From: Gemmata obscuriglobus
GTDB lineage: Bacteria; Planctomycetota; Planctomycetia; Gemmatales; Gemmataceae
Assembly (NCBI RefSeq): GCF_008065095.1
Contig: NZ_CP042911.1
Location: forward strand, 2,130,001 to 2,162,000
Length of the DNA: 32,000 nucleotides
Reading direction: 5' to 3'
The notes under the pieces: model-generated
Databases searched by the model: none
Seen by the model: the letters and a program-made list of their open reading frames with translations, nothing else
Told to the model about the DNA's origin: nothing
Shown here: in pieces, positions 3 through 28,895 of the stretch
Position numbering within the stretch: position 1 is the stretch's first letter
Layout of the letters: each line of letters starts with the position of its first letter
Translations under genes and position numbers: made by a program

Positions 3-1040
3 GACTACGACAAGGCCCGACACGAAGGCGAGCGAAAAGCCGTTCTGGACTTCTACGCCAACACGTTGACCAACCGGTTGGTGTACGCTGCGAACAAGGA
101 CCGTATCGTCCTATGCGGGCACCGGGTTCACGAAGACGACGTATTCAACCACGTCTGGACCACGTTCGGCAACGACGGCAGTTGGACGTATTTGTACCTC
201 CCGGCAGAAGCGAATCCGGACCTGAGTAACAGCTACCACAACGCTCTCGGTTGGAAGGACACCCGGAAGGTCGGCCAGTTGCTCCACCCCGGCGTTGTGC
301 CGCTGGCAAAGATCAATGAGGCGAAGAAGGGAGGGAAGCACAAGTACCACTGTCTTTACAACCAGGATGTTACTCCGGCGGACGGTGACATCTTCTCCGC
401 TTCGATGTTCCGGTACTTCACGGCGGCAGACGGCTTTTACAATCTGGCCGGGAAGCAGGTTGATGCGAAAGCGGCTTGGCGGTTCGTGGCGGTTGATACT
501 GCCGTCAGCACCGAGAGCACTGCCGACTATTCAGTGATTCAGGTCTGGGACTGCATCGGTGGTCACCTCGTCCTAGTCCATCAGATACGAAAACGACTCG
601 ACGGCACGAAACTGGTGCCGGCCATCGCCAGCGTCCACCGAACCTACAACCCTCAGTTCGTGTGCGTGGAGGAGCAGTTCGTCGGGCGGTTCGTCATCGA
701 TCAGTTGCGGGCCGAGAGTGTACCGGTCAAGCGGTTCAACGCAAAAGGTCACGGTGACAAAGAGACGAGGGCGGTAGCGGCACAGATCAGAATGGAAGCC
801 GGGAGTGTGTGGTTCCCGGCAGATCAGGACTGGGTGTCGGACCTTCAAAAAGAACTCCTAGCGTTCCCGGCGAGCACCCACGACGACCAAGTGGATGCGT
901 TGTCGATGGCGTGCATTTTGGCGGACAAGTACACCGGGAAGATCGAGATCGAACTGACCCCGGAGGAAGCCGAAGCAAAAGCAAAAAAGGACGCTGAGGG
1001 GCGTTTCCAAAAGATGCTTTGGCAGGGTGCTCCGTTCTGA
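3..1040 (+). CDS. Terminase large subunit, C-terminal part (5' end outside window)
   Basis: The frame is open from base 3, with no stop before the TTG at 66. Motifs are RIVLCGHRVHEDDV (ATPase coupling-like), VAVDTAVS..ADYSVIQVWD and HDDQVDALSMA (RNase H-like nuclease acidic residues). The stop overlaps the next start (TGATG). Confidence 0.85.
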   Translation, partial: DYDKARHEGERKAVLDFYANTLTNRLVYAANKDRIVLCGHRVHEDDVFNHVWTTFGNDGSWTYLYLPAEANPDLSNSYHNALGWKDTRKVGQLLHPGVVPLAKINEAKKGGKHKYHCLYNQDVTPADGDIFSASMFRYFTAADGFYNLAGKQVDAKAAWRFVAVDTAVSTESTADYSVIQVWDCIGGHLVLVHQIRKRLDGTKLVPAIASVHRTYNPQFVCVEEQFVGRFVIDQLRAESVPVKRFNAKGHGDKETRAVAAQIRMEAGSVWFPADQDWVSDLQKELLAFPASTHDDQVDALSMACILADKYTGKIEIELTPEEAEAKAKKDAEGRFQKMLWQGAPF

Positions 1041-3181
1041 TGGGCAGGCCACTAGATATCTGCATGCCGAAAAACGAGGGTCAGAAGTCGAAGAAAAAGG
1101 CGGTCACCAAGAAGAAGACCGCTCCGAAGAAGCCGACCACCAAAAAGCGGGTGGCAAAGAAAGGGTACGCCGGGTCCGGGAACATCTGGACCCCGATCAG
1201 CGGGGGCACGTTCGGCGGTGGGTTCGATCCCACGCAGCAAGAGGTTCCCACGCCGGTCGACCTTCTGTGTGCCTACGAAGACGTGGTTTTTGCTTGCACA
1301 AACCGCATCGCACAGGGCGTTGCTGAGGCCGCCACGTCGTTCAAGCTCGTCGTTGCCACCGGCCACGCCGACTCCCGGCCGAACTCCACCACGAAAGCAC
1401 TTCGCACCACTGACCGGAAGTGGATCGAGAAGAACCATAAGAATCGGGTGCGGAAGGCCGTGAGTGTTGAGGAAGTGGTGGACCACCCGGCCCTCGATCT
1501 TCTTGACACGCCGAACCCGCTGTATTCCTGGTCGAAGCTCGTCGAGCTGACGACCGAGTATATGTGCTTGGTCGGGTCTGCCTTCATCTTCAAGGGCCGA
1601 AACGATCTCGGCCAGGTTCGGGAACTGTGGGTTCTTCCGAGTCACTTGGTACAGATCGAGCCGGATGAGAAGACCGGGGCCATTGCGGGGTACAAGTTCA
1701 AGTCCGGCACTACCGAAGAACTGCACAAGCCGTCCGACGTAATCCACATCCGGTACACGGCCGACCCGCTGGACCCACACACCTCGTTTGGCATCTCGCC
1801 ACTTCGCTCCATCTGGCAGCGGTTCAGCTTACTCCGGCAGGAACAAGGAAGCTGGCTGTCGGTGCTTAGAAACATGGCGTTTCCGAGTCTTTTGGCGTCA
1901 CCGCCGGACAACGAGACATGGACCCCGCAACAGGCCGAGAGGATCGAAAAGCAACTGAACGAGCGGTTTCGATGGGGCAACCAGGGCGGCGTTTGGGCGG
2001 TGCAAGACTCGACGAAAGTGTCGCCACTCAGCACACCCCCGAAGGACGTAGCGGCCCTGAACATGTACGAGCAAATCCGTGAAAGTGTGGCACAGGCGTA
2101 CAACGTCCCGCTCCCGATGCTCGACATGGCGGACACCAGCTTCGTGACGGCGGACGTGACCCGGCGGAACTTTCAAGAATACTGTCTGGTTCCGATCCTG
2201 AACACGATCTTCGAAACGCTCAGCCACGACCTTCTCCCGGCCCGAATGTGGTTAGCGGCGGACAACATCGTCCAGCGGGACGAGGTGTTCGAACTCCAGA
2301 AAAGTACGGCACTTTTTCAGGGCGGTATCACCTGGCTGAACGAGGCCCGGGAGGAGCAAGGGTACGATCCGGTCCCGGACGGAAACAAGTTCTTCTTCGA
2401 GTTGATGGAGACCGGAACGCCCTCGGCCCAGACGTTCACCACGTCGTACACCGGCGGGCGGTTCAAGCGGAAGGGGTACAAATCCACGGTGCCGGACGCC
2501 ACGGCCCTCGTCGAGGTGCTGAAGTCGCTGTACGCTCGCCTCGGCCAGGACGTGATTTCACGCCTGAAGCACGCCAACGCCATCCACACCAAAAGTTTCT
2601 TCCCCGTGGCCGACTGGAAGGACGAGATCGTCCGGGAGTTAGTGCCGGTTCTCCGACTCTACGTCGAAGAAGGTGGATCAGCCGTCCTCGGAGAGATTGG
2701 CGGGGCTTTGAAGGTGCTCCCGGTGAACAAGCTCGACGATGCCGTCCAGCGTGCGGCCCTGGCGTTCGCTGACTCCACGCTCTCCACCACAACCCTTTCG
2801 GTCGAAGATGCGGTGAAGGCAACACGGGAAGCGATTCAGAGCGGTCTCGGCCAGGGCGAAGCAAACGCCGAACTGTCGAAGCGGGTCGGTGCAATTTTCG
2901 AAGACCTGACCGAGACCCGGGCAATGCTGATCGCTGAAACCGAGTCGTCGAGAGCTAAGCACGCTGGTGAACTACTCGCCATCGACGAGTCCGGCGTAAC
3001 GGCCATGAAAAAGTGGCTTCCTGACAACATGGCGTGCGACTTGTGCCGTGAACTGGCCCGCAAGGGCGGTGTTCCGCTGGATCAGCCGTTCGCCACCAAA
3101 GGGATCGGGCCTTACGCCAGGATCGATCACCCGCCAGGTCATCCCGGTTGCCGATGCTCTTTGCAGTACGAGTTCGAGTAA
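1040..3181 (+). CDS. Portal protein fused to a Mu F / SPP1 gp7-like minor head domain, with a Lys-rich N-terminal tract
   Basis: Residues ~60-470 resemble HK97-family portals (recall only) and the gene sits directly after the terminase. The last ~230 aa carry IAETESSRA .. W .. CDLCRELA .. PPGHPGCRCSL, typical of Phage_Mu_F. ATG 1040 overlaps the terminase stop. ATG 1064 is an alternative start. Confidence 0.8.
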   Translation: MGRPLDICMPKNEGQKSKKKAVTKKKTAPKKPTTKKRVAKKGYAGSGNIWTPISGGTFGGGFDPTQQEVPTPVDLLCAYEDVVFACTNRIAQGVAEAATSFKLVVATGHADSRPNSTTKALRTTDRKWIEKNHKNRVRKAVSVEEVVDHPALDLLDTPNPLYSWSKLVELTTEYMCLVGSAFIFKGRNDLGQVRELWVLPSHLVQIEPDEKTGAIAGYKFKSGTTEELHKPSDVIHIRYTADPLDPHTSFGISPLRSIWQRFSLLRQEQGSWLSVLRNMAFPSLLASPPDNETWTPQQAERIEKQLNERFRWGNQGGVWAVQDSTKVSPLSTPPKDVAALNMYEQIRESVAQAYNVPLPMLDMADTSFVTADVTRRNFQEYCLVPILNTIFETLSHDLLPARMWLAADNIVQRDEVFELQKSTALFQGGITWLNEAREEQGYDPVPDGNKFFFELMETGTPSAQTFTTSYTGGRFKRKGYKSTVPDATALVEVLKSLYARLGQDVISRLKHANAIHTKSFFPVADWKDEIVRELVPVLRLYVEEGGSAVLGEIGGALKVLPVNKLDDAVQRAALAFADSTLSTTTLSVEDAVKATREAIQSGLGQGEANAELSKRVGAIFEDLTETRAMLIAETESSRAKHAGELLAIDESGVTAMKKWLPDNMACDLCRELARKGGVPLDQPFATKGIGPYARIDHPPGHPGCRCSLQYEFE

Positions 3182-3199: not shown

Positions 3200-3367
3200 A
3201 TGAGGAAATACCGCAAGAAGGTGCTGGTGCCGGAAAAGAAAGAAGGCCCGTACCGCACCAAGATCCCGGACCCGCTGGACCAGATCACGGAGGATTTGGA
3301 GCGTGTGGTTCGGGAGTTCGACGAGTTCCAAAAGCTACAGGAGGCCCGTGAAGAAAAAGACCGTTGA
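3200..3367 (+). CDS. Possible 55 aa highly charged small protein (MRKYRKKVLVPEKKEGPY...QEAREEKDR)
   Basis: ATG-to-TGA ORF found by hand translation, below the ORF-track size cutoff. It fills the portal-protease gap. It has no obvious Shine-Dalgarno. Confidence 0.3.
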   Translation: MRKYRKKVLVPEKKEGPYRTKIPDPLDQITEDLERVVREFDEFQKLQEAREEKDR

Positions 3368-4133
3368 ATGTGCCTTGGCCCCGGTGCGGGTCACCGAAGA
3401 CACGGCCCGGTACATCGACAGCCTGGTCAAAGAACTGCCGAAAACCGACGCCTACAATTTCCGAAGGAAGGCGGTCACGTCCGAAGTCACCGACGTTCAG
3501 GCCACGGAGCGGGTGGACACGTCCCGGGTCACCACACGTTTAATGGATCGAGACTGCGAAATCGTCCTCCCGGAGGGCATCGAACTCGATAGCTACCGCC
3601 AGAACCCTATCGTCCTTTGGGGCCATGATCAGGACCGGCCGTGCGGTAAGTGCCTCTGGATCAAGCCCGACGCCGATGGCCTTATCGCCAAGACGTACTA
3701 CACGCCACGGCCCGAAGCGTATCAGGGTGAATGGCTCCCCGACTTCGTGTTCTCGATGGTCCAGGCGGAAGTCCTGAAGGGGAAAAGCATCGGCTTCATC
3801 CCGCTCGAAATGCGTGAGCCGGAGCCGGCCGAGGTGGAAGCGAATCCGGCCGTCCAGTGCGTCATCACCCGCTCGCTGCTGTTGGAGTACAGCGTGGTGT
3901 CCATTCCGTCGAATCCAGCCGCCCTCGTCGAGACGGTGAACAAGGGGTTCAGTCTCGACAACTGGGGTATCACCATCGTCGGCAAGACCAAGAAGCCGAC
4001 GCCGAAGAAGCCGGTCCAGAAGAAGGCGAACGTGTATGGGCCGATGGCGGATGCGGTGAAGGCCCTGAAGATGGACCCGAACAAGATCGCAGAAGAAGCG
4101 GTAGCGGCCCTTTTGAAGCGTTGGGAGGTCTAA
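3348..4133 (+). CDS. Prohead maturation protease, HK97 (S78/U35)-like
   Basis: The NPIVLWGHDQDRPCGKCLW and KGKSIGFIP motifs resemble HK97-type proteases, and the gene lies after the portal. The ORF is open from GTG 3303. I prefer GTG 3348, which is preceded by AGGAGG (3339-3344). The start is uncertain. Confidence 0.75.
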   Translation: MKKKTVECALAPVRVTEDTARYIDSLVKELPKTDAYNFRRKAVTSEVTDVQATERVDTSRVTTRLMDRDCEIVLPEGIELDSYRQNPIVLWGHDQDRPCGKCLWIKPDADGLIAKTYYTPRPEAYQGEWLPDFVFSMVQAEVLKGKSIGFIPLEMREPEPAEVEANPAVQCVITRSLLLEYSVVSIPSNPAALVETVNKGFSLDNWGITIVGKTKKPTPKKPVQKKANVYGPMADAVKALKMDPNKIAEEAVAALLKRWEV

Positions 4134-4517
4134 GTGGCAACAGTACTTGCATCGACCGACCAGTTTCCACTTCCACTGAATCTGACGGTGTACCAAGGTG
4201 CCACGTTCACGAAGACGTTTACTTGGACCACAGGGCCGGACCGCAGCAACCAGACGCCGGTGGATCTCACGGGCTACACGGCAGAAATGGCGATCAGGAG
4301 CGGCCAAACGGTGGTCATTAGCCTGACCACGGGCAACAGCGGAATTGCCCTCGGCACAACGGACGGAAGAATTACGCTGAACATTGATGCTTCGGACACG
4401 GCAACTCTGACAGCAGCGAACGCCGAATACGATCTTTTGCTTGCGTCGGGCGGGGTCGTGACTCCCCTCCTCGGGGGGTTGGTAGTTATCCGTGCGAGCG
4501 TGACGGCGGGGGCCTAA
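4134..4517 (+). CDS. Small beta-rich (Ig-like?) virion protein
   Basis: GTG start lies 5 nt after GGGAGG and directly after the protease stop. The pattern LxVYQGATF...PVDLTGYTA...I...YDLLL...G resembles small beta-sandwich proteins found next to phage fibre genes (recall only). Confidence 0.6.
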   Translation: MATVLASTDQFPLPLNLTVYQGATFTKTFTWTTGPDRSNQTPVDLTGYTAEMAIRSGQTVVISLTTGNSGIALGTTDGRITLNIDASDTATLTAANAEYDLLLASGGVVTPLLGGLVVIRASVTAGA

Positions 4518-4526
4518 AGGAGAAGA

Positions 4527-6131
4527 ATGCCGGTAATTAGAAACGATCCGATCCAACTAATCGAAGTGTCCGAGGACGTGTATCAACTGGTCGAACAGAC
4601 CACTGAAGTACAACTAGTCACCATCGGTATTCAGGGACCGCAGGGGGCTCAAGGTCCGGCTGGTCCACCAGGACCGTCGGGCCAATCGCTCCCAGATCAG
4701 TCAGGTCACAGTGGTGAGTTTTTGACCACCGACGGAACTAATCCATCATGGGCCACTGTCCCTAACCCGGACCTGACCCCCTACGCCCGCAAAGACACGG
4801 CCAACACGTTCACCGCACTGCAAACAGTAAAGCAGACCGGCACAAACGCCACAATTCAAGAGTGGCAGGACACTAGCGGGAATCTCCGGCTTCGGATTAC
4901 GACCGCCGGAGACCGACCCGTAATCCAGTTCGGCGACACTGCGAGTGACCAAGGTTTGTCGATCCGCAACAATGTCGGCACCGAGGTTTTCAGAATCCAG
5001 GACAACGGCGGCATTTTCGCAAGCCAGTACACGACGAATTCCGGCCTGTCGGTTAACGGCCTAAAAATTGTGAGAGGGTCGGGCAGCCTCGGTCTGTACT
5101 TCGGCGAAGCTGGCCAACCGTCACTACAGGTCGAGACCCCGCTGAGCGTCTCTTACACCAGCAGTTTCGCCATCACCGGCAGAGCAAGCCAAACGTTCGA
5201 TTTGCAACAGTGGCAATCAAGCACAGGGTCTGTACTCGCCAGGATCACAGCAGCCGGGGGCGTGATTGTGTCCGGTGCTGTAACGGGTGACGCCACTCTC
5301 GGTTCGGCCAACGTCAGAATGGGTGTCGGCTCAACTCCCAGATTAATCCTCGATGGCGGTTCGACTGGTGCGGTGACCCAGTTCGACAACAACTCCGGCA
5401 CGTTTAGAATCCTGAACAGCAACGCCGCTATTTTCACGTCGAGCACAGGCACGGTCGGCACGTCGTCTTTGTACGCCAGTCCTGTAACAAATGTGGCGTT
5501 CAACATTCCCATTCAGAACGCCTCTCACGTGGGGCTGGTAATTAATGGTGCGGCATCCCAAACGGCGGCGTACACCGAGTGGAAGGACAGTACGGGCACC
5601 ACACAAGCGACCATCAAGCCATACGCAACGACCGATTACAACGGCAATGCTGTAACGCTAGCACAGTTGGAAATGAGGCAGGCCAACGGTAGCAGCAACG
5701 CATTCATTCGCCCCTGGGTCGGCAGAGGGCTGGAGATCGTTACCGGCGGGGTTGCCAATGAGTTGAAGGTTGGCGGTTTGATTCGAACGGACAGCGGAAT
5801 TTCGTTGAGCACGTCGTCTGCCGGTGCGTCGTTCCGGAGCGGCACACAAGGCCCGGGGCTGTACCGTAGTTCGAGCGGTGCGGTTTGTGCCATCGCAATT
5901 ACCGACCAGTCCCACGGATCGGGTACCAACGCTTGGCGTGTGTCAGCGAACAATGCCGGTACTGATGTGGAAGTCGTGTACTTTGCTCACAGTATGATCG
6001 AATGCAAAAGGGCAATTAAACCGGCTGAACTGGCAGACTCGGCGGCACCAAACGGCACGCTGTACTACTCCACTACTGCGGGGAAGCTGGTGTTCAAGGA
6101 CTCGACTGGAACAGTGAACAACCTCTATTAA
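4527..6131 (+). CDS. Collagen-like-repeat fibre protein
   Basis: AAGGAG lies 4 nt before the ATG. A GXY run (GIQGPQGAQGPAGPPGPSG) is followed by a Ser/Thr/Gly-rich body. The body has three copies of an xxWxxSxGxxxAxIxxxG module (IQEWQDTSGNLRLRITTAG, LQQWQSSTGSVLARITAAG, YTEWKDSTGTTQATIKPYA), as seen in actinophage minor tail / fibre proteins (recall only). Confidence 0.75.
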   Translation: MPVIRNDPIQLIEVSEDVYQLVEQTTEVQLVTIGIQGPQGAQGPAGPPGPSGQSLPDQSGHSGEFLTTDGTNPSWATVPNPDLTPYARKDTANTFTALQTVKQTGTNATIQEWQDTSGNLRLRITTAGDRPVIQFGDTASDQGLSIRNNVGTEVFRIQDNGGIFASQYTTNSGLSVNGLKIVRGSGSLGLYFGEAGQPSLQVETPLSVSYTSSFAITGRASQTFDLQQWQSSTGSVLARITAAGGVIVSGAVTGDATLGSANVRMGVGSTPRLILDGGSTGAVTQFDNNSGTFRILNSNAAIFTSSTGTVGTSSLYASPVTNVAFNIPIQNASHVGLVINGAASQTAAYTEWKDSTGTTQATIKPYATTDYNGNAVTLAQLEMRQANGSSNAFIRPWVGRGLEIVTGGVANELKVGGLIRTDSGISLSTSSAGASFRSGTQGPGLYRSSSGAVCAIAITDQSHGSGTNAWRVSANNAGTDVEVVYFAHSMIECKRAIKPAELADSAAPNGTLYYSTTAGKLVFKDSTGTVNNLY

Positions 6132-6142
6132 TAAGGAATCAA

Positions 6143-6457
6143 ATGGCATTACAGTTAACGGGACAGTACGAAACAAACTACGGCACCACTGTTGATTCCA
6201 CTTATTGGCGGTGGATCGGTTTAGGAATTGATGTGAGCCGAAATCAAGGCACAGTAACGCTTTACGCTTACGTGTCTAAAGAGGCTTACGAAACAGGCAA
6301 ACAACCAATTGGCGATCGGCAGTATCAGGTAACAGGCCCTGGGTTCGCAGCCCTAGCAAACCAAATGGACGGCCCGCAGCCCTTGGGCATTTCAAACCCA
6401 ATTTATTCTTACATCAAGGCGAATGATGTGTACTTTGCGGCAGCGGTGGAGGTGTGA
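6143..6457 (+). CDS. Hypothetical 104 aa protein; by position a possible fibre assembly/accessory protein
   Basis: ATG lies after AAGGAA. The gene is tightly packed behind the fibre gene. It is AT-richer than its neighbours. No motif recognised. Confidence 0.5.
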   Translation: MALQLTGQYETNYGTTVDSTYWRWIGLGIDVSRNQGTVTLYAYVSKEAYETGKQPIGDRQYQVTGPGFAALANQMDGPQPLGISNPIYSYIKANDVYFAAAVEV

Positions 6458-6638
6458 GGGGTAAGGGTTTCAATGATTGAAGAGTTCAATTCTTGACGCC
6501 ACTGCTCTACATATCCTCTAAGTGAGTGACCAACCAGACCGCAGAACGTGGCGACCTGCCAGGCGAGTGCCGGGGGTGAGGCGTCCGGGAGGTCGGGGGT
6601 TCGGCATATATGTGTTGAATCAAATAATCAGAGGGCAA

Positions 6639-8069
6639 GTGAATAAGAAAAAACTGGTCAGTTACGTTCTGGAGTCGAGCTTCGGCGGTCTGGCTGAAGG
6701 TACCGTTCTTCAGTGCGACGAGGAAAAAGGCAACGCCTTAGTGGCCGCTGGCGTGTGCCGTGAGGCCACTGAAGAGGACATCGGCGAGACCGCTGAAGAC
6801 GAAGTAAAAGAAGACGAGGCGGAAGAGGACAAGGACGAAGGGGACGAGGAACTCGTCCAAGATGCTGTCCGGCGTCTTGCAGCCGATGCTAATGCCACTG
6901 TCACCAAGGCCGTCGAGAAGGCAACCGAGAAGCTGGCGAACCGGGTCAAGCGTCCGGCATTCGCCACCCCGCACGTAGCGGGCTCCGATCTGGCCGCAAC
7001 TGGCGGATTCAAGAACCTAGGTGACGCTGTGGCCGGGTACATCCGGGCACGTAAAGGCGACTTCGACGCAGCTCGGCGTTTCTCCCAGTACGGAAAGGCG
7101 GTCGAAGCTCGAACTAAAGCCACTGGCATGTCGATCAGCGGCGGGTCCGGTCACCAGGGTGGTGACCTCGTGCCGCAAGAGTGGGCTAAAGACCTGTGGC
7201 GTCTTACCTTCCAGAACGTCCCGGACCTGCTCGGGATGATGACCAAGTACGAGATGCGGAATCAGGTCGAGAACATTCCGGCGTGGGTCCAGTCTTCGGC
7301 GGCGGCCGGTATCCAGTCGAACGTGATCGCTGAGGCGAACAGCATCACCGCCACCGTTGGCGTGACGGCCAACGTCCAGTTGTCGTTGGTGAAGGGTGCC
7401 GTCCTGGTGAACACCTCGGACGAACTGCTTCGCTTCAACAGCTACAATTTGGAAAACGTCATCAAACAGGTCGTGCCGGAGCGGCTCCGATTCATGACCA
7501 ACGGTAACGTGGTTGCGGGTACGAACTCCCAGATTAACTTGGTGAGCAACGCCGCAGCCGTAACGGTCATTGCGGCGACACCGGGCCGGATCAACTTCGA
7601 CGACGTTACGAAGATGAATGCGGCACTGTACGACGATTTCGACAATGACGCCATCTGGCTGTGCAGCAAGAGCACTCTGCCAGAACTGTACAGCTTGGCG
7701 TACCCGAACCGTGGGGCAACCAACCCGTACCCGGCCTGGACCCCGGGCACCTTCGGTCAGGAACAGTTGCTCGGGCCGAAGCCGAAGGGCACGCTGTTGG
7801 GCAAGCCGGTGTACACCCTGGAAAACATCCCGGCGTTGGGTTCCCGTGGTGCTCTGATCCTGTGGCACCCGAAGTCCTGTGCGGCCGGGTACAGCGGCCT
7901 GATCGCTGATCAGACACCGTACCTCTACTTCGACCTGGCACAAGATTCGTTCAGATTCCTGTTCTACTTCGACTCGGTGAACCCGCTGACTACGCCGTAC
8001 ACCCGTGCGGACGGGTCGGTGTCGTCGAACATCGTCGTGTTGTCAGCGGGGTCAACCAGCAGCAGTTAA
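6639..8069 (+). CDS. Major capsid protein, HK97-fold-like, with acidic N-terminal delta/scaffold-like region
   Basis: The position, the size and the acidic segment (EEDIGETAEDEVKEDEAEEDKDEGDEE followed by a helical stretch) fit a delta domain upstream of a capsid body. The ORF is open from GTG 6522. GTG 6639 follows GAGGG. The start is uncertain. Confidence 0.75.
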   Translation: MNKKKLVSYVLESSFGGLAEGTVLQCDEEKGNALVAAGVCREATEEDIGETAEDEVKEDEAEEDKDEGDEELVQDAVRRLAADANATVTKAVEKATEKLANRVKRPAFATPHVAGSDLAATGGFKNLGDAVAGYIRARKGDFDAARRFSQYGKAVEARTKATGMSISGGSGHQGGDLVPQEWAKDLWRLTFQNVPDLLGMMTKYEMRNQVENIPAWVQSSAAAGIQSNVIAEANSITATVGVTANVQLSLVKGAVLVNTSDELLRFNSYNLENVIKQVVPERLRFMTNGNVVAGTNSQINLVSNAAAVTVIAATPGRINFDDVTKMNAALYDDFDNDAIWLCSKSTLPELYSLAYPNRGATNPYPAWTPGTFGQEQLLGPKPKGTLLGKPVYTLENIPALGSRGALILWHPKSCAAGYSGLIADQTPYLYFDLAQDSFRFLFYFDSVNPLTTPYTRADGSVSSNIVVLSAGSTSSS

Positions 8070-8128
8070 GGCCCATGATGCTCCGAATTCAAGCTGCTGG
8101 TTGACGCCAGAGTTCGAAGCAAAAGCTC

Positions 8129-8164
8129 AGCACCTGGCAAACATTACGCCAGGTGCTTTTGTTT
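8129..8164 (+). terminator. Rho-independent terminator after the capsid gene
   Basis: AGCACCTGGC (8129-8138) pairs with GCCAGGTGCT (8148-8157) across a 9 nt loop. The stem is followed by TTTTGTTT. Confidence 0.8.
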
Positions 8165-8744
8165 GCTGACGTTGCGTGTTTAGAAACACGGTAACTCCAC
8201 CATCACAGAGTCGGTTCCAGCCCCGTCGGCTCGCTCAGTGCAAAAAAGTCACAATGGCAATTGCTGTTTGGCATTTTCTTGCGATTCGCCGCTGGGGTGA
8301 TGACATCGCCCCGGCGAAATTTGCCCCCGAAGTTAGGGATTGCCGGTGCCTAAAGGCTGCTAAAGAAGAACCGGCTCAACGATTTATGTCTGATGTTCAA
8401 CTTGAACAAGCTCGCAAGCGGCTCCCCGGCAAGCCGTTTGCCCCAAGAGTGACAACGGTTGTCACCTTACCCCTGCAAGCCTTTCGCAGCTCTCTTGCAG
8501 GGGCGACTCAAAAAATTGAGCCGACTGCCACTTGGCAGGTTGCTTCAAGCTTGTGCAAGATGCACAAAACAGCCCTGCTCGCTTCGCATGTGGAGGCTCT
8601 TTTTGAGAATTTTTTTGCAGTCAAATTTGCTTGAAGTGCCTGAAAAGAATGGGCTTTTAATTTTTACTGTTGTGCGATCGTCTACGGTCGTCGATAGTCG
8701 TCGTTGCATTCGAGAGGTGCTACCGGTATCCTAGTGGAAGAGCT

Positions 8745-8769
8745 GCCCGGTATACCAGGTATACCGGGC
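8745..8769. promoter_or_regulatory. Perfect 25 bp palindrome GCCCGGTATACC-A-GGTATACCGGGC (candidate operator)
   Basis: Two 12 nt arms are separated by a single base, too tight for a simple RNA hairpin loop. Each arm contains the palindrome GGTATACC. Confidence 0.5.
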
Positions 8770-9327
8770 ATCCCGAACGAAGGTCACTCCTTCCGTTCAC
8801 TTGACACATTGCCCTGGCGATCCGCACGCCACTTGTGGAAGTCTTGCACGACTTGACACAGGTACAGCAGGCATAACATGGGTTCACAAGAGTGAGCCCA
8901 TGCCAAGCCTATGTGCGTAATGACCGCCAGAGCAGACCAAACAACGTGGCTGCTCATTCGACTACCCCTCCCTCAACGGTGGGTAAGATTGAATGGCCGT
9001 GTTGGGACATGCACCCCCAATAGGTGTATGTCCACCACAATAACCCCGGGCTGGCCCCCGGGGTTATTGCACGTCGGCCTGGCACTCCGACGCTGTGAGC
9101 CATTGTACAGGTATTCCGTTGGAACGGAAGGTGATCTGTCCGGCTCTAGAAGTCGCACCCCTGCCTCGACCGCACTTCTCGCTTAAAAGCCTTGTATTTC
9201 GAACGTTTTTGCGTCTCAAGAGCACCGGAAAAGTTTCGTGACTTTCCCACCTCATTAGCGGCTGATCGTTTCTTTTTGTTTCTTCACCGCCGAACGGTTT
9301 TCGTTCCTGTTGGCCATACATACCGGT

Positions 9328-10194
9328 ATGGCTGACCTGATCTCCATCGACCGAGCCCTGGCACAGATCCCGACCGCAACGGACGACGACACCACGGTGA
9401 TCGCCGCTCTAATCACGGCAGCCAGCCAAGTCGTCGAAACCAAGCTGAACCGCACGTTCGCACAGGCCAGTTACGACGAGCTTCACAGCGTGGTGGGTCC
9501 GACCGCTTCCATTTGGGCGAATAACCCGCCGATCTCCGACCTGACTGGCGTCCGGAACAACGAACTTCCCGCCTTCTACGTGCAACTGAACGACCCGGCG
9601 AACCTCGTCCAGCGGGCCACGGTGGACATCACCCCGACGGCCGTGGTGCTGAAGAAGACCCTAAACAACGTCAGCACCACCAGCACCTTCACCTTCGCAG
9701 CGTACCCGACGTTCGAGATGCTTTACGCAGCGGTTAACGCCCTCGGTAGCGGGTGGACAGCGACCGGCATGAACAGTCAGTTCCTTCAGTGGCAGACTGC
9801 CGAGATGTGTACGAACCACGGAACTCGGTCCGCCAGGAACGTCTCGTGTCCATTGCTCGTGTTTTGGTGGGACGAGGTGTACTACCAGGTGAACAAAACC
9901 ACGGGCGAGATCATTCTCCCGGCCGTGCGTGGCGTCCAGAACTACCGCATTCAGTATACGGGCGGGTTCAGTACCGTTCCCGAAGCCGTTCAGCAGGCGG
10001 TTGCAGAACTCGTGCAACTCACCTTTGCGTCTCGGCTTCAAAACCCCCTGATGCAAAGCGAGACGCTCGACAAGTACAGCTACACGAAAGCCGCACAGAA
10101 CAACTGGGACTTGCTGTCACTCACGTCGAAGTCGGCACTGAGCATGTACAAAATCCCTCGTCTCACCACGCAAGGAGTACCATCCAAAATTTAA
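9328..10194 (+). CDS. Head-tail connector (gp6-like N-terminus) with long C-terminal extension
   Basis: The N-terminus MADLISIDRALAQIP..DDTTVIAALITAASQVVETKLNRTF matches the gp6-like head-tail connector pattern (recall only). ATG 9328 lies inside an ORF open from TTG 9310. Confidence 0.65.
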   Translation: MADLISIDRALAQIPTATDDDTTVIAALITAASQVVETKLNRTFAQASYDELHSVVGPTASIWANNPPISDLTGVRNNELPAFYVQLNDPANLVQRATVDITPTAVVLKKTLNNVSTTSTFTFAAYPTFEMLYAAVNALGSGWTATGMNSQFLQWQTAEMCTNHGTRSARNVSCPLLVFWWDEVYYQVNKTTGEIILPAVRGVQNYRIQYTGGFSTVPEAVQQAVAELVQLTFASRLQNPLMQSETLDKYSYTKAAQNNWDLLSLTSKSALSMYKIPRLTTQGVPSKI

Positions 10195-16473: not shown

Positions 16474-17181
16474 GTGGCCGGACCGATCTTAGAGCCGTTG
16501 CCCAGTCTTACGCCGATTGAACCGTCGTCGAGTGCCGCACCAGTATCGAGTGCAGCACCCATTGAACCGTCGTCGAGTGCGACCCCGCTTCCGTCTTCAA
16601 GTGCGGCTCCTTTGCCGTCATCGAGTGCGACCCCGCTTCCGTCTTCAAGTACGGCTCCTTTGCCGTCATCCAGTGCGACTCCTTTGCCGTCATCCAGCAC
16701 AACTCCTTCGCCGTCATCGAGTTCCGCACCGCTGCCGTCTTCAAGCACCGCACCCTCATCAAGCCGTTCTTCTTCAAGCTCATCGTCGAGGGGCCGCTCC
16801 ATCACGATCCCCCTCGGCGGGTGCTGTGGCTGTTCGTCGTCATCGTCTTCGGCAAGTGCCGTTCCATGTAGTAGTTACCCGGGCTCTCTGTCGTACACGG
16901 TGTCACCGAACTGTACGCCGGGCATCCCGGCCCTTCCACTGACGGGCGGTCCGACGGTGTGGAACGCCGGGGCCACTACTAGCTGTGCCCCGACCGGATG
17001 GAGTATCACGCTGCACTGTTCGGGCGGTGCCCTGACGTACTCGGTTGCGGATGGCGGTGGGACGTACACCGGAGGCGTGACGATTTTCTCGACCAGCCCG
17101 TTTCACGCTCAAATCGTTTACACACCGGGGCCGGGTTCGTGCTGCGGCGGCACGCCTCAAACCATCGACATCACGGCGTAA
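16474..17181 (+). CDS. Ser/Pro tandem-repeat protein with Cys-rich C-terminal domain (candidate fibre / receptor-binding protein)
   Basis: AGGAGG-agt-GTG start. An N-terminal (A/T)(A/T)PLPSSS array is followed by a poly-Ser tract. The C-terminal domain has 9 Cys (GGCCGC, SCC). Confidence 0.65.
   Translation: MAGPILEPLPSLTPIEPSSSAAPVSSAAPIEPSSSATPLPSSSAAPLPSSSATPLPSSSTAPLPSSSATPLPSSSTTPSPSSSSAPLPSSSTAPSSSRSSSSSSSRGRSITIPLGGCCGCSSSSSSASAVPCSSYPGSLSYTVSPNCTPGIPALPLTGGPTVWNAGATTSCAPTGWSITLHCSGGALTYSVADGGGTYTGGVTIFSTSPFHAQIVYTPGPGSCCGGTPQTIDITA
16513..16790 (+). repeat. In-frame tandem repeat, about 24 nt unit (xxPLPSSS), with a near-exact 48 nt higher-order copy
   Basis: gtgcgaccccgcttccgtcttcaagt(g/a)cggctcctttgccgtcatc occurs twice in succession. 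About 8 degenerate units are present. Confidence 0.85.
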
Positions 17182-19890: not shown

Positions 19891-21213
19891 TTACTGCTTG
19901 ACCCGGGGCAGCGGAGCTACCTCGACGGCCTTAATGGTGATGATGAATTCTCCATCTGGCCTGTAGAATTTTTCTTTGTCAGGCCCACACAGATCGCCAT
20001 ATGTTCCTACTGCCATCAATATTTCGCTTGAAAGCTTATTCTTAACAAGATGGTTTCTGTATATTCTTTCGATCGTCTTGTCTAGAAGTACTCTCACCTG
20101 CGATGGCTCCGTCGCCGTGAGTAGGTCACACACGCCTTGGGTCGTCACCTTTGTTCCGAGCAGCCCTGCGTACCGAAGGGTTTTGATCCGCCGGAGGGAC
20201 ACGTCGGTGACGGCCGTCCGATCGGCCACGAACACCCCGAGGCTTACGGCACCGTCAAGGAATGAGGCTAAAGACCCGTCATCAACCGCCGTGTGAGAAA
20301 CATCAAGAAAGTCAATTTTTGCGGCGTCACTTATTTGTGGGAGAACGGTCAGGTTGTTCTTCGACAGGTTGAGCCTCTTGACGCCGTTGACCTTCAGGCT
20401 GCGAATCTTTGCATCGCTCAGCAAACAGTTGGGCAAGCTCAGACTCGTGAGGCCGTGAATTTGGCTAATAACTTGCAAGTCGGACGGTTCAAGGGCAACT
20501 CCCACAATATCAAGACTGACCAGATTCCTAATGCTCGAAACGGCCTCCACGATTGGTGCTGACTCTTCCAATTTGAGCGGCGGATTCTGCCATGCCGGCC
20601 CGTACCCCCCATTGTCACGCTCGTTCGAGTAGGTCCGAACTGTGACACTCACCTTCTGTGTCGTCGGGTCAATGTCGATGTCACAACCGACCCGGTGGTT
20701 TGTCGTCCGGCCGAGACCGGCCAGGAAAGCAACCGCTCTCTCATGACGAGCGAATGCTTCAAGTCGCTTATTCGCCTTGTCCAGTTCCTGTTCGGCACCA
20801 GCTAGCTTTAACGCAAACCCGGCCGCAAGCTTTCGCTTCTCACTCACCTCCGTTTGTGCAGCCCCGAGATTCTTGGCGGTTTGGGCCAAGTCAGCTTCCT
20901 TTTCCTTCAAAACCCACTTCAACTGGTTGATCTCGGCATTGATAGCGTCTCGTTTCACCACTAGCTCTTTCTGGTCGCCTTCCAGTTTCATTACCTGCAT
21001 GGCGACTTCGCTTTTTTTTGCCTCCAGTTCGCTCTTTTTGCTGTCAATGACGCCGGTCGAATACAGCATGTACCCAGCGATAATTGTTGCACTAACCCCA
21101 GCGGCTGTAGTCAGGCTGCTGATCCATTCAGTTGGTTTCGAGGCCCGCAGCCACGTACCCGTCACGTGCATCCAGAGCCGTGCCCACCGCCCCAGCCTCG
21201 ATTTGCTGGCCAT
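19891..21213 (-). CDS. Membrane-anchored coiled-coil leucine-rich-repeat protein (accessory/moron gene)
   Basis: ATG 21213 follows AGAGGGGA. TTG 21270 is an alternative start. It has a TM-like segment (ISSLTTAAGVSATIIAGYMLY) and ~100 aa of heptad-like charged sequence. LRR-like units follow (LTSLSLPNCLLSD, VKRLNLSKNNLTVLP, IDFLDVSHTAV). The 3' end is only about 35% GC. Confidence 0.75.
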   Translation of the reverse strand: MASKSRLGRWARLWMHVTGTWLRASKPTEWISSLTTAAGVSATIIAGYMLYSTGVIDSKKSELEAKKSEVAMQVMKLEGDQKELVVKRDAINAEINQLKWVLKEKEADLAQTAKNLGAAQTEVSEKRKLAAGFALKLAGAEQELDKANKRLEAFARHERAVAFLAGLGRTTNHRVGCDIDIDPTTQKVSVTVRTYSNERDNGGYGPAWQNPPLKLEESAPIVEAVSSIRNLVSLDIVGVALEPSDLQVISQIHGLTSLSLPNCLLSDAKIRSLKVNGVKRLNLSKNNLTVLPQISDAAKIDFLDVSHTAVDDGSLASFLDGAVSLGVFVADRTAVTDVSLRRIKTLRYAGLLGTKVTTQGVCDLLTATEPSQVRVLLDKTIERIYRNHLVKNKLSSEILMAVGTYGDLCGPDKEKFYRPDGEFIITIKAVEVAPLPRVKQ

Positions 21214-21297
21214 TGCGTCCCCTCTTGAGGTTCGCTGTCCAATTTTTGGTTCGCTGGCGAACGTTTGCAATTTTCTGCGATGCGGGGTGCGAGGTGC

Positions 21298-22080: not shown

Positions 22081-23706
22081 TTATTTCTTTTTCTTTGCGG
22101 ACTTGGCCATGTGTGCCATGTCGGTTAGTGGCACTTCGGTACCCCACACGCCTTGTTCGTCCTTCGCTGTGTCGTACCACACCTTTCGCACCGTCCCGGA
22201 GTGCAGCCGGATTGTCAGAAACACCCGCTTGTCCTCGACGCTCACTTCGATCTTTTCCAGGTGCATTAATAGCCGTTGCCGTACCTGCTCCCTGAGTTCT
22301 TTGAGTTCGGAGCCGGATTTGCTTTTCATCAGGTCAACTAGGGCTTTCGTGTCCTCGATGTTCGGCCTCGTTTGCTGGCGTGATTTCTCTTCGATTTCGT
22401 TCGTCAGCCGGGTTTTCTCGACCTGCATTTCGGCTAACTTCGCCATGACCGCTGGCACCTCTGCCCCAAGCTGGTCGAGCTGGTCAGCGATATTCTTGAT
22501 CCGCTCTTCGAGAAATTTCCTCTGAGCTTTGAGCGTCTCGATACCGTCTTCTTGGTTCTCTTGCGGTAGAAGGTCGCTTGCCTTCAATTCGTACAGCCAG
22601 TGCAGCACCACGCTTTCGAACCGTTCGTACCGCACCGCTACGTAGGGGTGCTCTTTCTTCCAGCCCAGATACGAGACGAGATACCGATAGTTGTGCTTTC
22701 CCGATTTGTTCGTCTTCGGCTTAGATATGAAAACCATATTGCAATCATGTTCTGGGTAGCGAACCAACCCCGTGAACAGGTTCACGAAATCGCCCTTCCG
22801 CCCTTGTTTGCCCGACCGGAGCTTCATTGCGTCTTGTGCAGCCCGATACGTTTTCTCATCGATAATCGGCGGGTAATATCCGGGGATGGCCGGACCGGGC
22901 TTGACCTTCTCGCCGTGTATCTGGGTCGGCAGTTCCCCCAGGACTCGGCGGTCCCTGAGAATGTCCCAGATGTATTTTTGTGCCCACCCGCTCCTGAACG
23001 GCGGTACCTTCTCTTCGAGCAATCGCCGCATTATCGATTGCAGCCCGTGCCCTTCGATGCACCAGCGGAACAGCTTCCGCACCAGCTCCACACGCTCCGG
23101 AATTTCTTCGAACCGGCCGCCGGTCACCCGGTTGTTCTTCTTCTTTTGATCCACCACCTTCAGCCACCCCGGGCAGATTTTGCTGAAAACCTTCCCTTCT
23201 GCGGCTTGGCGGTGTTTCTCCGTCCAGTTTTCCCGGGACCGAACCGCCTTTTTCTGTGACTCTTCGTGGGCCAAATAAAACCGCCAAATCAAACCCATCA
23301 GCCCCATCGGATCGTTCAAGCTGTCTTTCGTGTAAAGCCGGTACTCGATGACGCTGAACAGGTCACAGCCCTGTTCAAGTATTTTTCTCGCCACGTCCAC
23401 GCTGGCCATGATTTTGTCACGGGAGAGCCGGTCCAAGTCCTCCAGAATTAACACCGGGTTCGGTTCCAGTTGTCTCGCTTCGAGGGCTGCGAGAAATGCG
23501 GACAAATCGCCTTTGGTGCGGTTTCGGCCACGAAAGGCAGATACCCCGCAGTCCCGGTACGTTTTCGTTTGGAGTACCCACCCTTTTTCCCGGCAGATTC
23601 GTACCGTGCCTTCCGTTTGCCGTCGCTGGCTGTCACCCTTTTCTTGCTCTGGGGTGCTGAACCGTAGGTAGCTGTAGGCGGGGCGGTTCGGTGTGGTCGG
23701 GTTCAT
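22081..23706 (-). CDS. Large serine recombinase (prophage integrase)
   Basis: The N-terminal resolvase-type catalytic domain has AYSYLRFSTPEQ..GDS..RQ and LILEDLDRLSRD. A long recombinase domain and a C-terminal coiled-coil-like region follow. It is 541 aa and is the last gene before the host junction. Confidence 0.9.
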   Translation of the reverse strand: MNPTTPNRPAYSYLRFSTPEQEKGDSQRRQTEGTVRICREKGWVLQTKTYRDCGVSAFRGRNRTKGDLSAFLAALEARQLEPNPVLILEDLDRLSRDKIMASVDVARKILEQGCDLFSVIEYRLYTKDSLNDPMGLMGLIWRFYLAHEESQKKAVRSRENWTEKHRQAAEGKVFSKICPGWLKVVDQKKKNNRVTGGRFEEIPERVELVRKLFRWCIEGHGLQSIMRRLLEEKVPPFRSGWAQKYIWDILRDRRVLGELPTQIHGEKVKPGPAIPGYYPPIIDEKTYRAAQDAMKLRSGKQGRKGDFVNLFTGLVRYPEHDCNMVFISKPKTNKSGKHNYRYLVSYLGWKKEHPYVAVRYERFESVVLHWLYELKASDLLPQENQEDGIETLKAQRKFLEERIKNIADQLDQLGAEVPAVMAKLAEMQVEKTRLTNEIEEKSRQQTRPNIEDTKALVDLMKSKSGSELKELREQVRQRLLMHLEKIEVSVEDKRVFLTIRLHSGTVRKVWYDTAKDEQGVWGTEVPLTDMAHMAKSAKKKK

Positions 23707-25294: not shown

Positions 25295-25344
25295 GATCGG
25301 GTAGTCGTGGCACCGATCGCTGTCGGTGCCACGACTACCCGATC
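25295..25344 (-). terminator. Perfect 22 bp-stem hairpin downstream of the minus-strand gene ending at 25389 (terminator-like, no U tract)
   Basis: GATCGGGTAGTCGTGGCACCGA, a 6 nt loop, then TCGGTGCCACGACTACCCGATC. Confidence 0.5.
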
Positions 25345-28829: not shown

Positions 28830-28895
28830 GGCGGCGCCAACGGGGCGCCGGGGGCCGATGCACAACGCGGACCCCGGCGCCCCGTTGGCGCCGCC
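28830..28895. repeat. Perfect 24 bp inverted repeat in the gap between two co-directional genes
   Basis: GGCGGCGCCAACGGGGCGCCGGGG (28830-28853) and CCCCGGCGCCCCGTTGGCGCCGCC (28872-28895) are separated by an 18 nt spacer. Confidence 0.85.

Follow-up and report, generated by a model that had tools for sequence, protein, structure and literature searches.

The gap between the capsid and connector genes of a Gemmata prophage (positions 8070-9327, 1258 nt, of the 32-kb stretch of DNA analysed here, hereafter the window) is real, hairpin-dense and without a convincing gene, and its self-complementarity is far above chance. Most of it is an island of ~1.13 kb that is not a conserved large RNA of the GOLLD or ROOL kind, as had been proposed in the original prediction, but a one-off insertion at a site where related phages carry selfish nuclease genes or nothing. 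The island is most likely lineage-specific intergenic cargo at a phage mosaic boundary, and its hairpin-rich content is unusual.

The gap lies within a plus-strand prophage structural module, which contains genes for a portal protein with a Mu-F domain (1019-3181), a prohead protease (3303-4133), an HK97-type capsid protein (6639-8069, stop codon at 8067-8069) and a head-completion or connector-like protein (9328-10194, ATG at 9328; connector gene below), followed by tail genes up to about 19.9 kb. The right end of the prophage is marked by a minus-strand gene for a large serine recombinase with Resolvase and Recombinase domains (22081-23706), beyond which lie a metallo-beta-lactamase-fold gene, a DUF3472 gene and host genes. 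In the tail region, the protein encoded at 16474-17181 has about ten tandem PLPSSSA(A/T)-like Ser/Pro repeats and then a Cys/Gly-rich domain, its gene being atypical among its neighbours (GC2 0.78, codon score about 0). A minus-strand protein directly past the tail genes (19891-21270), which also marks the right end of the prophage, gives a sub-threshold match to Pfam LRR_8 (22.7 bits versus a cut-off of 27).

Relatives of this locus were found by a capsid alignment search, single-protein searches of the locus having given none. The capsid homologues are 40-74% identical, and all of them come from metagenomes or from Gemmataceae and Frigoriglobus MAGs. The comparison set consisted of 13 distinct related loci, each with a capsid and a connector gene. 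In eight of these (L006, L008, L010, L040, L091, L092, L094, and L096) the capsid-connector spacer is only 60-110 nt long, which bears out the claim that the gap is unusually large for this phage family. The eight short spacers share one order, namely a terminator hairpin, a T-tail, ~15-20 nt, CTACATAC (or CTAAATAC), 4-6 nt, and the start codon. This motif is found 4-6 nt upstream of the connector start codon in the window (9314-9327) and in all 13 relatives, despite the divergence of their capsids, and no Shine-Dalgarno sequence is seen upstream of the connector start. The motif could be a -10-like box of a nearly leaderless mRNA, or else a translation or regulatory signal.

The boundaries of the island were set from an nhmmer profile of the relatives' junctions together with the sizes of their gaps. 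In the window, the profile has a match at 9300-9341 (E = 8e-8) and a weak one at 8146-8168; since both halves of the spacer are recognised, the ancestral spacer has been split, with the island proper at about 8169-9295. The left part of the spacer (8129-8166, plus strand) is the capsid terminator with its T-tail. The terminator had been reported before and is indeed real: a 10-bp perfect stem with a 9-nt loop (8129-8157) is followed by TTTTGTTTG, the stem is GC-rich, the hairpin and its T-run lie directly 3' of the gene, and equivalents are present in the relatives. The right part (9296-9327, plus strand) comprises a T-tail remnant GGTTTTCGTTCC and the conserved leader CATACATACCGGT abutting the connector ATG, and the island is thus flanked by similar T-tails (TTTTGTTTGC on the left and TTTTCGTTCC on the right). 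A leader-like TACCGGTAT at 8721-8729 was regarded as a chance occurrence, its likeness to the true leader not being picked up by the junction profile.

The base composition of the island also differs from that of its surroundings, its GC content of 0.53 being below both the window average of 0.60 and that of the phage part. The local drop to 0.42 at 8641-8700 noted in the original prediction was recovered. An AT-rich segment (8581-8670, plus strand, GC about 0.37), which includes weak terminator-like hairpins with T-runs at 8581-8597 and 8638-8654, divides the island into two halves. The left half (8169-8680) is AT-richer and contains an orphan open frame and T-rich terminator-like ends, and the right half (8680-9140) is a row of strong hairpins.

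The same site is occupied in other phages. Five of the 13 relatives carry inserts of 451-1114 nt at this position, which are unrelated to each other or to the window except that the proteins of L035 and L005 are homologous. The L039 insert encodes an HNH_3+AP2 endonuclease (6455-7030); the L035 and L005 inserts each encode one of these two Cys-rich proteins, with matches to the PHROG families for endonuclease, endonuclease-VII, and HNH (E = 1e-23 to 1e-28); the L009 insert has a 158-aa ORF on the minus strand; and the 451-nt insert of L004 has a possible 77-aa ORF. The L039 cassette comes after a second copy of the leader together with ATGGCAGAT, which represents the first three codons of the connector gene, and the connector then restarts as ATGGACCTG, a duplication typical of the homing-type footprint that marks an insertion point. 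Among the sites compared, the Gemmata insert is the largest and the only apparently non-coding one. Its DNA showed no similarity to the relatives and their inserts (blastn and nhmmer) and no match in phage and plasmid collections. Pattern scans of viral contigs gave no match for the 27-bp palindrome described below or for the orphan ORF, and for the stem motif at 9038-9069 the hits were all generic terminators, in contigs that are unrelated. None of the collections searched contained a homologue of the island.

Two further features of these relatives were observed. In L035, a 16-bp perfect stem without a T-tail (6421-6472) lies past the capsid gene and overlaps the region in which the endonuclease-VII-like ORF probably has its true start; this ORF seems to be longer than annotated (open frame from 6399). 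The interval between the prohead protease and capsid genes is a hypervariable slot as well (4134-6457 in the window, 335-4841 in L035, 83-4793 in L039, and 62-3851 in L092). In the window it holds a 534-aa protein with collagen-like G-X-Y repeats, whereas relatives have a 910-aa glycoside hydrolase or F5/8-type protein, a protein with a beta-helix, or collagen together with a subtilase; such fibre-like or enzyme genes are unusual within a head module.

As the best, albeit tentative, explanation, we suggest that 8169-9295 is cargo peculiar to this strain, or what is left of an earlier cassette, at a hot spot for insertions. Foreign, strain-specific DNA would have recombined into a spacer of ~80 nt between the capsid terminator and the connector leader, a spacer that acts in these Gemmataceae phages as a recurrent landing site for selfish or accessory cassettes. 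The insertion itself, the hot spot, the missing coding signal and the excess of hairpins are shown by the analysis. Because the site follows a terminator and precedes the start signals of the next gene, an insertion here breaks no gene and would be tolerated. We infer that the island is transcribed only passively, by late read-through of the capsid terminator, and that it lacks an essential function. Its hairpins would form on the sense RNA and act locally at most, by way of pausing, termination, or protection of the 3' end; they may serve as punctuation in cis on the late transcript and would not amount to an autonomous large structured RNA. Several hints point the other way, namely G-U pairs on the sense strand, a hairpin cluster unlike the relatives' inserts, and a weak period-3 signal in the open frame (all discussed below). 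Moreover, old neutral junk should have decayed, and the perfection of the stems implies that the hairpins are either young or maintained by selection. If the cargo or scar reading is true, the island reflects ordinary phage mosaicism, and the locus is a clean example of a "safe-harbour" spacer (terminator plus conserved leader) in which homing endonucleases and other cargo are captured time and again in the little-studied Gemmataceae phages.

All of the stem-loops originally listed are present in their places, two of them being somewhat longer than described. They are located at 8175-8190, 8470-8503 (10-bp perfect stem), 8551-8567, 8744-8770, 8775-8798, 9005-9033 (11 pairs, one of them G-U), 9038-9069 (extending to a 13-bp perfect stem), and 9114-9129. 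The one at 8744-8770 is a perfect palindrome that extends to 27 bp, TGCCCGGTATACC-A-GGTATACCGGGCA, made of two tandem GGTATACC units, which are the sole copies of this sequence in the 32-kb window (0.08 expected). Additional hairpins were detected at 8831-8863, 8877-8902 (11 pairs), 8940-9003, and 9071-9092. A further one, at 8052-8104 (plus strand), has a 12-bp perfect stem (TCAACCAGCAGC / GCTGCTGGTTGA, 8052-8063 / 8093-8104) and a 29-nt loop that holds the capsid stop codon (dG about -21.6, sliding-window z = -5.6). Several of the hairpin stems are perfect, measuring 13, 13, 10, and 10 bp. The row at 8775-9131 (plus strand) comprises eight hairpins, from 8775-8798 through 9114-9129, without U-tails.

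This density is far beyond chance. When a perfect hairpin was defined by a stem of at least 9 bp and a loop of at most 20 nt, the 1258-nt gap contained four, against a mean of 0.107 in dinucleotide shuffles, and none of 1000 shuffles reached four; hairpins with stems of at least 7 bp numbered 11 versus 1.4 in shuffles. The gap (8070-9327) holds four of the nine perfect hairpins with stems of at least 9 bp in the 32-kb window. A single perfect hairpin of at least 9 bp turned up in the phage coding regions checked, inside the connector gene (9643-9680, 10-bp stem, 18-nt loop). The predicted fold of 8680-9140 on the plus strand reaches -200.8 kcal/mol, compared with -159.5 ± 6.2 for shuffles (z = -6.7), and the minus strand gives z = -7.2. 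Two other elements of the original prediction are in place but do not exceed chance. The long-range complementarity between 8789-8798 and 9122-9131 is present; however, it is at chance level (~0.75 10-mer pairs expected in 1258 nt) and is unused in the minimum-energy fold. The direct repeat ACTTGACACA is likewise found at 8799-8808 and 8851-8860 but is only marginal versus chance; it includes TTGACA, and an acceptable -10 box is missing. No tandem repeats were found.

Among the alternatives, the best placed, although we consider it unlikely, is that the hairpin row (~8740-9130, sense strand) is a functional RNA, either acting in cis in the late operon or forming a discrete lineage-specific structured ncRNA. 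In cis it could serve in processing, stability, attenuation, or antitermination, at the step from the highly expressed capsid gene to those of the connector and tail. In addition to the fold energy, sliding-window z scores range from -2.5 to -4.7 across 8680-9040 on the plus strand, which is lower in energy than the minus strand in seven consecutive windows. All four imperfect hairpins (8831-8863, 8877-8902, 8940-9003, and 9005-9033) are stabler on the plus strand, by 2.7-4.1 kcal/mol each, because of G-U pairs; this four-of-four bias toward the sense strand (P about 0.06) is a mild hint of RNA-level constraint. Globally, however, the two strands of 8680-9140 do not differ in fold stability and have 12 G-U pairs apiece, which fits stems that are mostly perfect Watson-Crick. 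The absence of coding periodicity in the row (chi2 p = 0.89) is also in favour of this reading. The perfection of the stems argues for maintenance and, together with the sense-strand bias, keeps the functional-RNA reading alive. In the relatives' gaps there are one or two terminator hairpins, never clustered, so a cluster does not come with every insertion here. On the other hand, the 27-bp palindrome with its 1-nt centre is more suggestive of a site on DNA than of a hairpin in RNA, and all four strong hairpins lack a U-tail on both strands.

Against such an RNA stands the absence of the island from all 13 relatives, an outcome that the original prediction had itself named as telling against a conserved structured RNA; the phage family evidently does not need it. 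Hairpin density alone is no evidence for a large ncRNA, and what is seen here is simple hairpins, one after another, whose stems are mostly perfect Watson-Crick. An Rfam 15 cmscan of the whole window gave 0 matches at the gathering score, and a search of 7900-9500 at E up to 10 returned four chance matches (a snoRNA, a miRNA, the MS2 hairpin, and an Enterococcus sRNA). The Rfam covariance models of large ncRNAs (GOLLD, ROOL, HEARO, OLE and others), self-splicing introns and small ribozymes had no match, and no tRNA or tmRNA was found. Neither a U-tailed terminator nor a sigma-70-like promoter bounding an RNA gene was found, the promoter scan being one that does not cover planctomycete promoters. 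A Logan contig (L003) that starts at 8873 was considered as a possible RNA-seq transcript and dropped, as the capsid gene does not lie on a short contig and the run could not be identified in the literature. A bolder version, in which the hairpin row is a new lineage-specific RNA module or class without database relatives that controls the hand-over from capsid to connector and tail genes or acts in trans in lysogeny, appears quite unlikely. To our knowledge, almost nothing is known of gene regulation in Planctomycetes phages, and the hairpins, if functional on RNA, would offer a rare window into it.

It is rather unlikely that the island is a classical moron. In that case the longest open frame (8176-8634, plus strand; 152 aa from GTG) would be a genuine orphan gene, foreign and of lower-GC origin, with the T-rich hairpins at 8581-8670 as its end, and the palindromes downstream would serve its regulation or form part of another small unit. 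Genes are present at the same site in relatives, and a terminator-like hairpin with a T-run lies directly after the stop codon of the frame. PGAP annotates the 126-aa version that starts from the ATG at 8254 (NCBI hypothetical protein WP_148087673.1). The public annotations conflict, however: in another assembly the frame is uncalled, and a 57-aa minus-strand ORF within the hairpin row (8784-8957) is annotated instead. The frame has a weak period-3 signal (chi2 14.6-17.3, matched by 1.5-3% of shuffles), with G high at position 1, G low at position 2, and a T-rich position 3. The remaining island shows no such signal (chi2 p = 0.85-0.89), so that the periodicity check suggested at the outset was negative for the rest of the island and weakly positive for this frame.

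The other measures of coding potential weigh against a gene. As had been pointed out, the third positions of the frame are A/T-rich, with a GC3 of 0.47 compared with 0.50-0.88 in the 18 neighbouring genes checked (at least 0.62 in all of them except a 104-aa gene at 6143-6457). Its codon score under phage codon usage is -0.12 to -0.16, whereas 17 of the 18 phage genes score +0.14 to +0.54, and 30% of shuffled islands hold an open frame as long. A protein search among 5.8 billion proteins gave a self-match only, and a full phmmer search against 1.84 billion representatives likewise found only the frame itself, consistent with the claim that the gap has no convincing ORF. No Pfam or PHROGs family was assigned to it, and a six-frame, stop-masked hmmscan of the island (Pfam, PHROGs, PADLOC, and NCBIfam, E up to 1) yielded one non-significant NCBIfam line only. 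No sigma-70-like promoter was found in the island by the promoter scan. The AF2 model of the 126-aa frame has a pLDDT of 40, which is weak evidence given its single-sequence input. For the rest of the island, a concatenated six-frame query (8635-9330) was run against the 5.8 billion proteins; its null result was disregarded, as it missed the known identical 57-aa protein. The frame is an orphan of chance length with foreign codon usage and probably not a gene.

A family of palindromic repeats of the host (REP/BIME-, PATE- or MITE-like) might have spread into the spacer once the prophage had integrated, leaving the hairpins as its copies, but we consider this improbable. Palindromic units clustered between genes, just past a terminator, would suit the idea, perfect stems would suit recent transposition, and large perfect palindromes are also found in the host part of the window, past the integrase (25295-25344, 22-bp stem and 6-nt loop; 28830-28895, 24-bp stem and 18-nt loop). 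However, no second copy of any island segment was found within the 32-kb window, there are no terminal inverted repeats, and the sole flanking direct repeat is the imperfect T-tail (7/10). The GC content of the island, below both the phage part and the window average, does not favour a host origin either. In addition, a 77-kb Logan contig spans the island unbroken. If Logan assembly uses k = 31, this argues against exact repeats of at least 31 nt elsewhere in the genome.

That the left half is a decayed, inverted relic of an endonuclease-VII-like homing endonuclease gene, as found in L005 and L035, is very improbable. The site is a homing-endonuclease hot spot, and the translated minus strand of 8131-8460 can be aligned with residues 69-187 of the L005 protein (27.7 bits, 26% identity), a score unreached in 1000 shuffles of the island, 1000 of the query, and 600 block shuffles of the query. 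However, the alignment has two stops and 14% gaps, overlaps the capsid terminator and mostly does not conserve the Zn-binding cysteines, the L035 homologue fails to reproduce the match, spurious frames score similarly (2829 open frames of relatives), and the PHROG HMMs of the family are silent on all six frames. The nuclease domain has no counterpart in the island; tblastn with the relatives' nucleases gave this one weak match only, outside the nuclease domain, and the six-frame hmmscan with the four libraries found no nuclease ORF (HNH, GIY-YIG, LAGLIDADG, or EndoVII). A replication origin, a pac/cos site, an integron attC site, and IS200/IS605 ends were also considered and rejected, as there are no iterons, no transposase and no reverse transcriptase, and the genomic position is wrong.

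We finally compared the island with known systems. Like GOLLD, ROOL, and similar RNAs, it is noncoding, prophage-borne, hundreds of nucleotides long, and strongly structured by prediction; unlike them, it has no covariance-model match, is not conserved in any relative, and consists of simple, mostly perfect hairpins lined up one after another, where those RNAs have conserved multi-helix junctions. The island resembles REP/BIME, BOX, Correia, or MITE-like repeats in having palindromic units in a row after a terminator, but it has neither other copies in the 32-kb window nor terminal inverted repeats. Cis-acting RNA hairpins are known from phages, such as sib of lambda, which mediates retroregulation through an RNase III site, and the put antiterminator RNAs of HK022. 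The island shares with them sense-strand hairpins within an operon that needs terminator read-through, but it has no sequence or structure match to them and is absent from relatives.

Morons were reportedly described by Hendrix and colleagues in lambdoid phages as extra DNA between genes that are adjacent in related phages. In the same manner, the island lies between capsid and connector genes that are adjacent in eight relatives, with the two halves of the spacer on either side of it, its composition differs (GC 0.53 versus 0.60, no GC3 bias), and terminator sequences flank it. It differs from morons in having no credible coding gene or recognisable promoter, and a hairpin row takes up half of its length in place of an ORF. 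PMC7067206 also mentions accessory or "moron" loci. Free-standing homing endonuclease cassettes occupy phage intergenic regions, such as the seg/mob genes of T4 (PMC2988022), and nuclease genes at boundaries of genetic exchange are mentioned in PMC10448857. At this site three relatives have HNH_3+AP2 or endonuclease-VII/HNH-like genes, whereas the island has no nuclease ORF and only a weak, putative similarity to one on the opposite strand. In its position and composition, the island behaves like a moron or an insert at a homing-endonuclease landing site.
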